Shown here piece by piece: positions 41,186-44,724 of a DNA stretch of 64,000 nucleotides. Source of the stretch: Candidatus Limnocylindrales bacterium (GTDB taxonomy: Bacteria > Moduliflexota > Moduliflexia > Moduliflexales > JAUQPW01); assembly GCA_035559535.1 (NCBI GenBank), contig DATMBG010000044.1, positions 124,001-188,000 of the forward strand, given 5' to 3'. The notes beneath the pieces are model-generated. The model saw only the letters and a list, made by a program, of their open reading frames with translations. It did not search any database and was not told the origin of the DNA. Every line of letters starts with the position of its first letter. The stretch's first letter is position 1. The translations under genes and the position numbers were made by a program.

Positions 41186-42022
41186 TCAAAGCTCCAACAT
41201 AGTCCCTTCGATTCCCGGGATGAGCTGAAAGGTTAAATCAAAAGAGTTTTGGACACCCTGGATGAGGTAATCTAAAAGGAAATCTGTATGACTGGGGTCA
41301 TGGTGGAAGGTAACAAGCCGTTTGACGCCTGTAACGGTAGCAAATTGGATGGTATGGGAAATGGCGCTGTGTCCCCATCCGATACGCTTAGAATACTCCT
41401 CCGGCGTATATTGTGCATCATGGATGAGAAGATCCACCCCTTCGGCCAGGCTAAATCCGGATATCCAATCCGGTTCTCCTGGAAATTCTTTCGCCCCGAG
41501 AGCTGGTTCATGATCCGGCAAGTAGGCGATTGAAGTAGAGCCTTCGGTAATCCGAAAACCCAAGGTCGGTCCGGGGTGACAAACGAGAGAGGCCATAATC
41601 TGAAATCCTCCAATCTGGAAACTGCCTAGAGAGATGTCATGAAGTGTAAGTTGGCAGGGTAAATCCCGTAGCCATACCGGAAAAAGGGGGGGTGAAAGGT
41701 ATCGGGCCAGGCGGGCATGTAAATCCAAGGTTATGGAGGGAGGCCCCCAAATATGGACTTCTTGATCGGGCTGATCTAAGGGTTTGAAAAATCCCAATCC
41801 CTGGATATGATCCATATGAAGATGGGTCAGGAGAAGATCGATACGGGGTACTTCGGGTCCGATAGTGGCCCCCAGACGCCGGATGCCGGTCCCTGCATCC
41901 AGAACTAAGAGAGTCCCATCGGCTCCCCTTACCTCCACACAAGAAGTATTACCTCCGTAGCGGACAGTTTCAGGACCTGGAGCTGCCAGGGAGCCCCGGG
42001 TTCCCCACAGGGTGATTCTCAT
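41186..42022 (-). CDS. MBL-fold metallohydrolase (PhnP/phosphodiesterase-like)
   Basis: MRITLWGTRGS, YGGNTSC, THLHMDHIQG, HDAQY, GWGHS and FHHDP. The ATG overlaps the upstream stop. Confidence 0.88.
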   Translation of the reverse strand: MRITLWGTRGSLAAPGPETVRYGGNTSCVEVRGADGTLLVLDAGTGIRRLGATIGPEVPRIDLLLTHLHMDHIQGLGFFKPLDQPDQEVHIWGPPSITLDLHARLARYLSPPLFPVWLRDLPCQLTLHDISLGSFQIGGFQIMASLVCHPGPTLGFRITEGSTSIAYLPDHEPALGAKEFPGEPDWISGFSLAEGVDLLIHDAQYTPEEYSKRIGWGHSAISHTIQFATVTGVKRLVTFHHDPSHTDFLLDYLIQGVQNSFDLTFQLIPGIEGTMLEL

Positions 42023-42852
42023 AAAGGGTTCTCTTCCTCCCAAAAGATTGCCACGGCACCTAGATGCCGATTTCCTTCTCCTTCCAGTGGAAATGCTGTC
42101 ACTGCAATTCTTCTGAAAATTCCATCCAGACTTCGGATCCAGAATGAACGATGGTCTGCTCGATACTTCTGGAGAGCAATGCTCAGGGGGAGATCCTCGG
42201 GGGAAATAGGAGAACCATCTTCGGCCGTTGGAGTGAAAATGGTAGACCACTCCTCAAAAGGCATTTCACCGGTTTCATTATATCGATGGCCCAGAAGCCT
42301 TTCGGCGGATTCATTGTAAAAAAGCAGGTTTCCGACCGGATCTACCAGGAAGATCGACATGGCAAGATAACTTGAAAGCTGTCGCATGAGGATGACTTCT
42401 ATACACCTGGAAACTTTGAGGTTTTCTACGTTTTGGGCAGCATTTACTACCTGCCTAGGTAGAGGATTTACCTCCCAGAAGATGGATACCGCACCCAGGT
42501 ATCGACCCGCCATTCCCTTTAGGGGGAAGGCGGTAATCTTAATTTTTTTGAAGAGGTTGTTAAAGGTACGAATCCAATAGGCCCGATGGGTTGCCTGGTG
42601 CTTCTGAAGAGCGATTAGTAAGGGTCTGTCTTCCATGGGGAGGGGTGAGCCTTCCTCGGTAATTGCCGGAATCATAGAAGACCATTTTTGCAGAGATACT
42701 TCCCCGATTTCTTTGTATTGACAACCCAGCACTTCTTCAGCCGAACCATTGCAAAAAATTAAGGTTTCACCGGAATCTGCAATAAGGGTGGGTATGGCAA
42801 GATAACTCGCAAGTTGCCGCATTAGAATAATTTCAATATCTTTCTGGGGCAT
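42019..42852 (-). CDS. Tandem PAS-domain protein (internal duplication)
   Basis: Two ~125-aa repeats, each IExILMRQLxSYLA...TAFPL...LGAVxIFWE. Confidence 0.82.
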   Translation of the reverse strand: MPQKDIEIILMRQLASYLAIPTLIADSGETLIFCNGSAEEVLGCQYKEIGEVSLQKWSSMIPAITEEGSPLPMEDRPLLIALQKHQATHRAYWIRTFNNLFKKIKITAFPLKGMAGRYLGAVSIFWEVNPLPRQVVNAAQNVENLKVSRCIEVILMRQLSSYLAMSIFLVDPVGNLLFYNESAERLLGHRYNETGEMPFEEWSTIFTPTAEDGSPISPEDLPLSIALQKYRADHRSFWIRSLDGIFRRIAVTAFPLEGEGNRHLGAVAIFWEEENPL

Positions 42853-42913
42853 AAATCCCCTTTCCGCTCATGGAGGCTTTAGCTGGTCGGGTGGTTTAAG
42901 GATATGTTACTTT

Positions 42914-42947
42914 AAAGTAGAGACGTTGTTGGCAACGTCTCTACTTT
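42914..42947. repeat. REP-type palindrome, possible terminator
   Basis: aaagtagagacgttg-ttgg-caacgtctctacttt. Confidence 0.7.
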
Positions 42948-43147
42948 TTATCCCCCAAAAAGTTTACCAAAAAAGCGGGTCAGTTTAGCTAACAAACCTG
43001 CGGGGGCCTCTGTTGGTTTGATTTCCTCGGGTTTTACTGGTTCAGCAGGCTTTGTTTGCTGAGGGGGACCGGCTTTTTCAGCAGATTTTGAGGGTTCTTG
43101 TTGGGTATCATCTAAGGCTGCTTTTTTAATGGGGGATTATCCCCCAT
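42948..43147 (-). CDS. Frameshifted small ORF coupled to fae (Pro-rich linker plus amphipathic C-terminal helix)
   Basis: The ATG overlaps the fae TGA. A -1 shift at A_AAA_AAG (43127-43121) yields 66 aa ending AGLLAKLTRFFGKLFGG. Confidence 0.45.
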
Positions 43148-43638
43148 CAAGCGAAGGGGTGTTTGGCCGTGTCCTTCTTGGCCAGTACTTCATCGATACT
43201 CGGTTCATTTTTCATGGCTCGGGCAATCGCTTGTTTGGTCGCCTCGTAATTATAATCGTAAATTTTCTTCTTATCCTTGGCATCCCAGTGAATAAATACC
43301 CCGACCACAATCACAATATCTTCGACCAATCCTTTAGGAATTACACCGGCTTCAACTGAATCGGCAACGGCTTTAGCCACTGCTGCCTGGGCCGGACCAA
43401 ACATCAATACCGCTTGGTCTCCCCCCTTGATGGTAACCTTATTCACAATAACGGTCGCCGGTTTTGGTTGGAGGTTTGGGGTTAAGACGGCCAGAAGAGC
43501 GGTATGACCCATTCGCGGCGATACAAGGGTTTGGGCAAAGGCCTGACCTACTGGACCTGTTTTGGAACCTATCAGCAAATCTATATGGGCTACTTCATTT
43601 CCATCCCCAACTAGGGATTCACCGATACGCATATCCAT
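43147..43638 (-). CDS. fae: Formaldehyde-activating enzyme
   Basis: IGESLVGDGNEVAHIDLLIG, NKVTIK, MFGPAQAAVAKAV, GVFIHW and HPF; start at MDMRIG with GGAGG RBS. Confidence 0.96.
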   Translation of the reverse strand: MDMRIGESLVGDGNEVAHIDLLIGSKTGPVGQAFAQTLVSPRMGHTALLAVLTPNLQPKPATVIVNKVTIKGGDQAVLMFGPAQAAVAKAVADSVEAGVIPKGLVEDIVIVVGVFIHWDAKDKKKIYDYNYEATKQAIARAMKNEPSIDEVLAKKDTAKHPFA

Positions 43639-43824
43639 AAGAAGTCCCTCCTTTTCTTTAATTAGACCAGACTGGTAAAGATCCAATAAAGGGCGCTCCT
43701 AAAATCTATACCAGCCCGGTAAGGGTTTACAAATTTGTAGGAAAAGCCCATCAGGCTACCTACACCAGGATCTGATGCGCCCATCAAAGATTCTCTTTTT
43801 TATAAGTAGAGACTCACTTTGCTG

Positions 43825-44724
43825 CTAAAGTCGTTTTTTCGCTGCCTCATAGGCAAATTGAAAATCAACAACCGTCATTTTCTCTGCCGTTCTTATCTTA
43901 TCCAGCATGTCCATTTCCACCTTGTATTTTAAGTCTCCAATAACTAAGGCTCCGATGCCCAAGATGCCTGGAACAATCTCGGCTAAATCTTGATTAGAGG
44001 CAAGTCCCTCAATCCCTGACGGAGGTACGGCATTGACATCTGCCACGATTTTACCCGGTGGGAGCTTTTCCAGAATAGCTTTGGAAAGAACCTGAATACC
44101 GGCTTTAGCCGTTGAGAAGATAAGATGAGCCTCTTTAAGAATATCCAGTTTCTTCTCAGGAGTCCAGGCATAATCTCCCTCTACCGAGACCCCATATCGC
44201 TCCTTAAGGGTTTTGGCAATCGTCTCGGCAAATTCCGGACTTCGAGAAGGATCGGTCTCTACAATCTTCGTATGACAACCGTTTTTTGCACACAGCACAG
44301 CAGCTATACGACCGACCGGGCCGGTACCGCCCAGTATAGCCACATTCTTACCCGCTAAATTACCCATTTTGCAAACTTCAAGGGACTTTTCAACCTTGGC
44401 CAGCAAAGCAGAGGCTGTCGAATAAGCTCCTTTGGGATCAATCATGATGGAAACCTGGAAGGGTGGAAACATGTTTTTCTCCACGGCTTTCCAGATATCC
44501 TCTGCTAAATTGAGATCACTTCCTCCTATGAAAATACTTGAAAATTTAGTCCCCCCGACACCCCGAGAAAAAATAATATCTTGAGCCAAAAGCCCGCCGA
44601 TTTGGGGAGTTACATGGGTATAGGGGATAACAATATCGAATCCCACATCATAGGCCATATTAATATCGAAGGGACTTGCATAATCATCAGTTGTAAACAT
44701 ATACAAAAGGTGTTTTCTTTCCAT
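43825..44724 (-). CDS. mtdB: NAD(P)-dependent methylene-H4MPT dehydrogenase (MtdB/MtdC family)
   Basis: SPFDINMAYD, IFSRG, DPKGAYSTA, GGTGPVG, DVNAVPPSGIEG and GIGALVIGDLKY motifs. Confidence 0.85.
   Translation of the reverse strand: MERKHLLYMFTTDDYASPFDINMAYDVGFDIVIPYTHVTPQIGGLLAQDIIFSRGVGGTKFSSIFIGGSDLNLAEDIWKAVEKNMFPPFQVSIMIDPKGAYSTASALLAKVEKSLEVCKMGNLAGKNVAILGGTGPVGRIAAVLCAKNGCHTKIVETDPSRSPEFAETIAKTLKERYGVSVEGDYAWTPEKKLDILKEAHLIFSTAKAGIQVLSKAILEKLPPGKIVADVNAVPPSGIEGLASNQDLAEIVPGILGIGALVIGDLKYKVEMDMLDKIRTAEKMTVVDFQFAYEAAKKRL

Follow-up and report, generated by a model that had tools for sequence, protein, structure and literature searches.

In the window analysed here, a stretch of 64,000 nucleotides (nt) from the Candidatus Limnocylindrales bacterium assembly GCA_035559535.1 (contig DATMBG010000044.1), the gene of formaldehyde-activating enzyme, fae, is followed by a small open reading frame (ORF) of 59 codons, which, judged from its substitutions, is most likely a real gene kept under purifying selection. 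The ATG overlapping the fae stop stands one base out of this frame and, if the frame is coding, its decoding must be non-canonical. That the gene is real and requires such decoding we regard as likely. The best explanation suggested by the sequences compared is a genuine lineage-restricted gene for a small protein of ~59–66 amino acids (aa), composed of a short N-terminus, a disordered linker and a MinD-type helix, and situated between fae and a hairpin at the transcript end.

Reading frame behind the fae stop

The window assembly (G000) was compared with G001, which is the one further species of this genus in the genome set, with two relatives of the peptide found in a protein collection (P0002, which is the G001 version, and P0003, which comes from other sources), and with contigs X1, X2 and X5, obtained in three studies. 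The elements of the locus are arranged as follows:

43147–43638, minus strand: fae, formaldehyde-activating enzyme, 163 aa (Pfam PF08714, E 5.7e-74), with the TGA stop at 43149–43147
43126–43150, minus strand: junction hairpin UUGAUGGGGGA-UAA-UCCCCCAUUAA, 11 bp with the loop UAA, −16.6 kcal/mol
43112–43147, minus strand: zero-frame mini-ORF opened by the coupled ATG, MGDNPPLKKQP and then TAG, a 12-codon frame read directly from the sequence
43141–43145, minus strand: Shine-Dalgarno-like G5 run, upstream of the heptamer by 13 nt and of ATT by 10 nt
43137–43139, minus strand: TAA in the peptide (−1) frame, four codons upstream of two Lys codons; TTA in G001
43128–43130, minus strand: ATT (Ile), the sole near-cognate start in the peptide frame ahead of its conserved part; Ile is kept in P0002 and P0003
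43121–43127, minus strand: heptamer A_AAA_AAG, candidate −1 slip site, phased with the ATG frame, identical in G001 and free of indels in contigs X1, X2 and X5
42948–43127, minus strand: conserved peptide ORF, 59 codons and TAA, with KKAALDD, a Pro/Lys/Ala/Glu-rich linker and an amphipathic tail
42951–42998, minus strand: C-terminal cationic amphipathic helix GLLAKLTRFFGKLFGG, membrane-targeting-like by its hydrophobic moment
42914–42947, minus strand: 15-bp hairpin directly after the peptide stop, −22.9 kcal/mol, z −5.9, equalled by 0 of 200 shuffles

The fae gene has AAGGAGG 8 nt ahead of its ATG and shows 99% identity to that of the sister species G001. The second ATG (43147–43145) overlaps its stop as TGATG on the minus strand, and the mini-ORF read from it in G001 is MGDYPPLKKQP. 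From position 43127 the −1 frame runs as KKAALDD...FFGKLFGG up to TAA at 42950–42948, and the complete reading of the frame one base back is KKAALDDTQQEPSKSAEKAGPPQQTKPAEPVKPEEIKPTEAPAGLLAKLTRFFGKLFGG. Since TAA at 43139–43137 lies in this frame, no ATG, GTG or TTG is able to open it in the window, and ATT at 43130–43128 is left as the only candidate. The preliminary description of this DNA, made from its letters, gave the same layout (TGATG, MGDNPPLKK, in-phase A_AAA_AAG, the zero-frame stop after KQP, the −1 frame open to 42948 and the hairpin behind it) and was right in every detail; the TAA inside the peptide frame was not part of it.

By itself an open frame of 62 codons at 45.7% GC is not significant (its chance was estimated as ~0.03 per frame), and it is raised above chance by the substitution pattern registered in comparison with relatives. 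The differences between G000 and G001 were distributed over the first, second and third codon positions in the following way:

Peptide ORF (180 nt): 9 differences (0, 2 and 7)
fae: 18 differences (2, 0 and 16)
mtd, the dehydrogenase-like gene: 56 differences (7, 5 and 44)
Intergenic 43636–43824: 26 differences (9, 9 and 8) and 5 gap columns

G001 has the same arrangement as the window, and seven of the 9 changes are synonymous in the peptide frame, leaving 2 non-synonymous, while in the other two frames 0 of 9 and 2 of 9 are synonymous. When the same numbers of transitions and transversions were placed at random, 7 or more synonymous changes appeared in 0.3% of 100,000 trials (P = 0.003). Changes at first and second positions (2 of 118) are as rare as in mtd (12 of 600), unlike those of the intergenic segment (26 of 189 plus indels), and the 59 codons are free of stops and indels in all three lineages, the third one being represented by X5. 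Within the ORF the listed differences between X5 and the window are four synonymous ones in third positions and one replacement, a count that may be incomplete because 14 differences are unlisted. Thus, the conservation that a translated −1 frame had been expected to display was indeed found.

Two other starts were considered and rejected. The ATG located just past the zero-frame TAG opens a frame of 25 codons, which is unconserved, with 3 amino-acid changes from 4 substitutions, and the TTG near the end of the ORF would yield only a 15-aa helix, leaving the synonymous pattern upstream of it unexplained.

The origin of the offset is suggested by P0003 (66 aa, 83% identity), the same peptide with M in frame. 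It starts as M-G-G-N-S-P-I-K-K-A-A, whereas the same frame reads D-G-G-stop-S-P-I-K-K-A-A in the window and D-G-G-L-S-P-I-K-K-A-A in G001, so that homology in the peptide frame reaches the two Gly codons after the ATG, and the ATG of the window is displaced by one base. Four closest Fae clusters (one at 99% and three at 86%) share the C-terminal residues, and the fae stop is therefore probably at the same place in the organism of P0003. The simplest reading is that, compared with the lineage of P0003, the interval from the ATG to the conserved ORF is one base shorter in the genus, and most likely this base is missing from the G5 run, although this placement of the indel we infer from the protein, since the DNA of P0003 was not obtained. 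The out-of-frame state is common to G000, G001/X2 and X5 and is thus older than their split. As the offset predates the split and the synonymous bias arose after it, the ORF would have been functional in the out-of-frame state.

An error of assembly or sequencing, with A7 or G6 as the true run, would turn the locus into a plain small gene with no recoding, and an A6/A7 mistake was among the explanations initially offered. Homopolymers are indeed error-prone on some platforms, and the G001 contig is recorded with very low coverage. The contigs mapped over 42850–43700 (they are contigs, not raw reads, and rare variants could be hidden in them) cross the site with 0 gaps and with no inserted or deleted letter listed. 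X1, which comes from the probable source run of the window (22 kb, depth 28.7), is identical to it; X2 (20 kb, depth 10.1) carries the G001 letter at all 10 positions that differ within 42948–43147 and hence is not independent of G001; X5 (549 nt, depth 3.15), obtained in a soil study, represents a third lineage with 19 other letters and keeps the TAA. At position 43138 X5 has the letter of the window, and X2 that of G001. The alignment of G000 and G001 is gap-free from 42853 to 43635 with the same lengths of homopolymer runs. Identical run lengths in three lineages from three studies make an error very unlikely, and many differences at other positions show that the lineages do not all repeat a single mistake. 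In the probable source run there is also a second contig (1530 nt, depth 15), which matches only 90 nt of fae (43216–43305) with 18 differences and is unlike the window on both sides; probably it belongs to fae of another organism from the same sample.

Possible routes of decoding

The junction hairpin sequesters the UGA of fae together with the overlapping AUG, the G5 and C5 runs and AUU, and its 3′ arm extends into the first A's of the heptamer. In its 34-nt context the free energy is −17.8 kcal/mol (z −4.0, equalled by 0 of 200 shuffles), and in G001 the hairpin is conserved (−16.6 kcal/mol, z −4.0), with the sole change, at 43138, falling into the loop. It is not a repeat of the genome: the pattern G5-N3–7-C5 occurs at 35 places, several of them overlapping, none with the same sequence. 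Such a structure would hide both candidate starts until it is opened by a ribosome finishing fae, which is consistent with an architecture of translational coupling. The hairpin behind the peptide stop, in which the sole change of G001 (42931) is again in the loop, is probably the end of the fae-peptide transcript. It has a strong stem with a tail of only UUUAAAG, and a scan for consensus terminators, which gave 0 sites in 42600–44000, did not call it because its T-tract is weak. Contigs of the RNA run X11 cover only 43150–43537 within fae and do not reach the peptide ORF.

Recoding at the peptide ORF is possible judging by its sequence, and a −1 slip at A_AAA_AAG is the route to the full peptide that we tentatively favour. 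Ribosomes finishing fae would melt the junction hairpin and restart at the overlapping AUG, assuming translational coupling, and a small share of them would slip by −1 within the seven-codon space between the TAA of the peptide frame and the TAG of the zero frame. The best site for this would be the heptamer, possibly aided by GGGGG 13 nt upstream, pairing with the anti-Shine-Dalgarno sequence. In dnaX-type sites a stimulatory Shine-Dalgarno-like sequence is spaced about 10–14 nt upstream of the slip site. In this genome the 16S 3′ end GGATCACCTCCTT, found on contig C26, contains the canonical anti-Shine-Dalgarno. The predicted product, MGDNPPLKK-AALDD..., is near to MGGNSPIKK-AAIED... of P0003. 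Such slippage would be of the low-efficiency “corrective” type rather than the high-efficiency programmed one known for dnaX, setting the peptide at a small fraction of Fae. Directly 3′ of the heptamer stands C, a base reported in PMC5009743 to promote shifting, and “corrective” frameshifting appears there as a recognised class; a Shine-Dalgarno-like sequence upstream is described as a known stimulator in dnaX (PMC5600365), and PMC1851650 reports that in E. coli one-base deletions near the start codon were rescued by slippage on C-AAA-AAA (pDEST17).

Several observations weigh against this route. No stimulator was detected 3′ of the heptamer in G000 or G001, which behave alike: the first 30 nt past it give 0.0 kcal/mol and 50 nt give −4.7 kcal/mol (z −0.7), pseudoknots not being searched separately. 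Both tRNA-Lys(CUU) and tRNA-Lys(UUU) were found by aragorn among 44 tRNAs of the genome. In E. coli, by contrast, AAG is said to be slippery because there is a single tRNA-Lys, and Thermus, which has two, relies instead on slippage of RNA polymerase (PMC5009743). In-frame copies of the heptamer number 402 in 3785 long ORFs and show no depletion (the share of AAA-AAG among Lys-Lys pairs is 24.9% after A versus 24.8, 23.0 and 26.7% after C, G and T), and since it is not avoided genome-wide its slipperiness in this organism is probably modest. For E. coli, too, PMC4066793 gives only ~0.3% shifting at the bare heptamer and up to 3.7% in the best 3′ context. The phasing of the heptamer has no weight, because it is automatic after the loss of one base upstream of two AAA Lys codons. 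The data behind the case are thin, comprising 9 substitutions, three close lineages and, for P0003, the protein sequence. Finally, the in-frame AUU start with its Shine-Dalgarno-like run accounts for the data about equally well. Most marks of a programmed dnaX-type frameshift are missing, given the lack of 3′ structure, the presence of tRNA-Lys(CUU) and the unavoided heptamer. Of the initial proposal of a recoded peptide, the coding −1 frame with its out-of-frame ATG and the need for non-standard decoding stood, and a −1 slip at A_AAA_AAG would supply such decoding. A +1 shift and readthrough from fae were also considered and rejected, both being blocked in the window, by TAA at 43139–43137 and by TAA in the fae frame.

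Like dnaX of E. coli, the locus has the identical in-phase heptamer and a Shine-Dalgarno-like G-rich run ~12–13 nt upstream, but unlike dnaX it has no downstream stem-loop, the organism possesses the cognate tRNA-Lys(CUU), in-frame copies of the heptamer abound genome-wide, and the shift, at a site 8 codons into a tiny ORF, would be needed for the sole useful product rather than for a second isoform. The locus also resembles the cases of corrective frameshifting presented in PMC5009743 and PMC1851650 (pDEST17): there is likewise a one-base shortfall near the start and then an A-rich slippery run within a few codons, and the non-shifted product, here an 11-mer, is likewise useless. Unlike them, the offset has become established in nature, in no fewer than three lineages of a free-living bacterium, where it is kept under selection, and the frameshifting itself is putative.

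The same gene may alternatively be started at the in-frame AUU (43130–43128), giving a 59-aa product Met-KKAALDD... Once ribosomes leaving fae melt the hairpin, GGGGG would serve as its Shine-Dalgarno sequence, the ATG mini-ORF would be a by-product, and the one-base difference from P0003 would fall into an untranslated leader. ATT is the sole near-cognate start in frame after the TAA, with Ile kept there in P0002 and P0003. Its spacing of 10 nt is inside the range in which GGAGG is enriched before the starts of this genome (4–11 nt; 52 cases at 10 nt), the anti-Shine-Dalgarno is canonical, and the missing frameshift stimulator is accounted for, while tRNA-Lys(CUU) becomes irrelevant. In E. 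coli, where AUU is the start codon of infC and pcnB, initiation at it proceeds at 1–2% of the AUG level (bioRxiv 10.1101/063800), which is of the same order of magnitude as unstimulated slippage. With infC and pcnB the locus has in common an in-frame AUU suitably spaced from a Shine-Dalgarno-like run, and its expression should likewise be low; it differs from them in that no autoregulatory logic is known here, in that a hairpin sequesters the AUU, and in that an overlapping AUG of another frame comes before it. Indeed, AUU and the G run are both paired in the −16.6 kcal/mol structure, ribosomes coming off the fae stop reach the overlapping AUG earlier, and such starts are very rare. The canonical M of P0003 is in frame and lies six codons upstream, so that the use of AUU as a start would need to be new. 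We rate initiation at AUU about as probable as the slip, each as a specific claim being less likely than not. Both predict low output of similar size, and on present data the two routes are not separable.

Less probable still is a gene disabled by the loss of one base and now decaying, with the synonymous bias reflecting small numbers or recently ended selection. In line with this the window has no canonical start and an in-frame TAA upstream, gene callers made no protein of its version, the peptide family is tiny and the argument for selection depends on 9 substitutions. What makes a relic unlikely is the age of the out-of-frame state, shared by G000, G001/X2 and X5 and so preceding their split, after which changes accumulated as 7 synonymous to 2 non-synonymous (P = 0.003), with first and second positions altered at the level of mtd and not at that of the intergenic segment, and with no stop or indel in 59 codons of three lineages. 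The frame may also be restored in the nucleic acid, either by stutter of the polymerase on A6, giving A7 transcripts, or by rare G6/A7 alleles (phase variation). Two homopolymers, G5 and A6, do lie inside the critical 27 nt, and an extra A yields the same product as the −1 slip. Runs of 5–6 are short for this purpose, productive transcriptional slippage being described at about 9 or more, and the contigs X1, X2 and X5 have no length variant, although contigs drop rare ones. Despite the preference for polymerase slippage in dnaX ascribed to bacteria with two tRNA-Lys (PMC5009743), we consider this route very unlikely. The probability left after the slip, AUU, relic, nucleic-acid and assembly readings goes to other explanations.

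Amphipathic tail and range of the family

Over LLAKLTRFFGKLF the hydrophobic moment is 0.69, with Lys/Arg on one face, while in the linker it varies from 0.08 to 0.42, and apart from the tail the peptide is predicted to be disordered. For the MinD tail of the same genome, GLLKGLKRLVGID, the moment is 0.46, weaker than that of the peptide, so the resemblance to MinD-type tails noticed at the outset received computational support from both the moment and the cationic face. Like the targeting sequence of MinD, this is an extreme C-terminal cationic amphipathic helix of ~13–15 residues with a Lys/Arg face; unlike MinD, it is attached to a disordered linker of ~45 residues with no folded domain, and there is no homology to MinD. 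In PMC8155659 the MinD tail is described as a transplantable membrane-targeting amphipathic helix, a single E. coli copy of which binds membranes weakly, and binding of the peptide tail is therefore uncertain. Based on the strong amphipathic tail and the precedent of MinD, one can assume by analogy that the product may be a peripheral membrane peptide, which is a fair guess at its function. A predicted complex of two Fae with the peptide (score 0.01, mark 0.32) speaks neither for nor against binding, and a model of the peptide from the Atlas gave no usable structural look-alike (predicted local distance difference test, pLDDT, 0.36).

Searching a collection of 5.8 billion proteins returned two relatives, P0002 and P0003; the window's own version of the peptide is absent from it. 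The last 14 residues are invariant in all three sequences. P0002 (81 aa, 97% identity) was called from an upstream ATG inside fae: since the TAA of the peptide frame is TTA in G001, the frame extends there as far upstream as an ATG in the 3′ part of fae, hence the 81-aa protein of the gene callers overlapping fae. In the window the same fae-internal ATG reaches TAA after 18 codons. Among 41 related genomes searched with the peptide, matches were found in G000 and G001 only, all others having E of at least 0.05. A HMMER profile of the three peptides revealed no relative beyond P0003 among 1.84 billion representatives; two long repeat proteins (E 1.3e-8 and 6.9e-4) were judged spurious, as they match over 21–40 low-complexity residues only. 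Pfam has no family for P0003, and the two hairpins gave only sub-threshold chance matches in Rfam. A peptide-alignment scan of metagenome contigs for the DNA of P0003 yielded 413 pattern stretches, 0 of which were confirmed, a degenerate DNA pattern for the tail had 0 matches, and a scan of viral contigs also had none. The peptide family is thus known only from this genus and P0003. A full-text literature search, assessed by title, gave nothing on recoding at fae and nothing pairing formaldehyde-activating enzyme with an amphipathic helix.

It had also been supposed that the peptide is a former C-terminal extension of Fae, now detached, and this idea gained no support: no longer protein carries the peptide and no Fae with such a tail was found. 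Of 20 candidates in a search for longer proteins with P0003, 0 contain it as part of a longer chain, the four closest Fae clusters (P0004–P0007) end at the same residues as Fae of the window, and a linker-helix tail was present in 0 of 4 over-long Fae proteins inspected. Of 73 Fae loci in genome contigs 11 were inspected, and the peptide was there at the G001 locus only; four others, planctomycete-like, have unrelated sequence after fae. Six loci of archaeal type (L030–L035) read on in frame into a further domain (...PRLWRPPYLQI(A/S)LD...); since there is no stop between it and Fae, the products are Fae fusions, in contrast to the stand-alone Fae of the window.

Genomic surroundings and biological meaning

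The surroundings of fae are a tetrahydromethanopterin (H4MPT) one-carbon (C1) module, whose further members are metallo-beta-lactamase-fold, ATP-grasp, GCHY-1 cyclohydrolase, Hydantoinase_A, amino-acid-kinase and FmdE-like proteins. The nearest neighbours on the two sides are:

43825–44724: methylene-H4MPT dehydrogenase-like gene (mtd), a member of the C1 module beside fae
42019–42852, minus strand: protein with two PAS-like halves, downstream of the hairpin that follows the peptide

The halves of the latter protein are alike, each opening with ...IE(I/V)ILMRQL(A/S)SYLA..., and its rate of change exceeds that of its neighbours (29 of 556 first and second positions differ from G001). The 3′ end of its gene overlaps the next ORF when the latter is read in its long form from GTG (41186–42250); the true start of this ORF is probably further in. 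Fae is present in 2 of 41 related genomes, G000 and G001 only, and in 0 of 7 of the sister family (G002–G008); outside the genus the nearest Fae are 73–78% identical, and the named ones are planctomycete (Gimesia). The C1 module may have been acquired horizontally. Among the 44 tRNAs of G000 aragorn also registered one selenocysteine tRNA (tRNA-SeC, anticodon TCA), so the organism probably makes selenoproteins.

In its parts the locus belongs to kinds already known, that is, corrective slippage or a non-AUG start, and a small protein with an amphipathic membrane-seeking tail. It would not become a notable case unless the offset turned out to be a selected metering device. In such a design, which we hold to be improbable, an obligatory −1 shift or AUU start, coupled by the hairpin to the termination of fae, would meter a membrane-anchoring peptide at ~1% of Fae, tethering or organising the formaldehyde/H4MPT chemistry at the membrane. 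This would be selected recoding in a chromosomal, non-mobile locus of a bacterium with both lysine tRNAs and no classical 3′ stimulator. If the peptide is not made, the ORF is an ordinary young pseudogene. If it is made, a frame-disrupted chromosomal gene of an uncultured lineage would have long been kept functional by low-level slippage or a non-AUG start. Genes of such a kind escape gene callers, and this one would add an orphan small protein, little beyond a linker and a membrane-seeking helix, coupled to a central enzyme of C1 metabolism.

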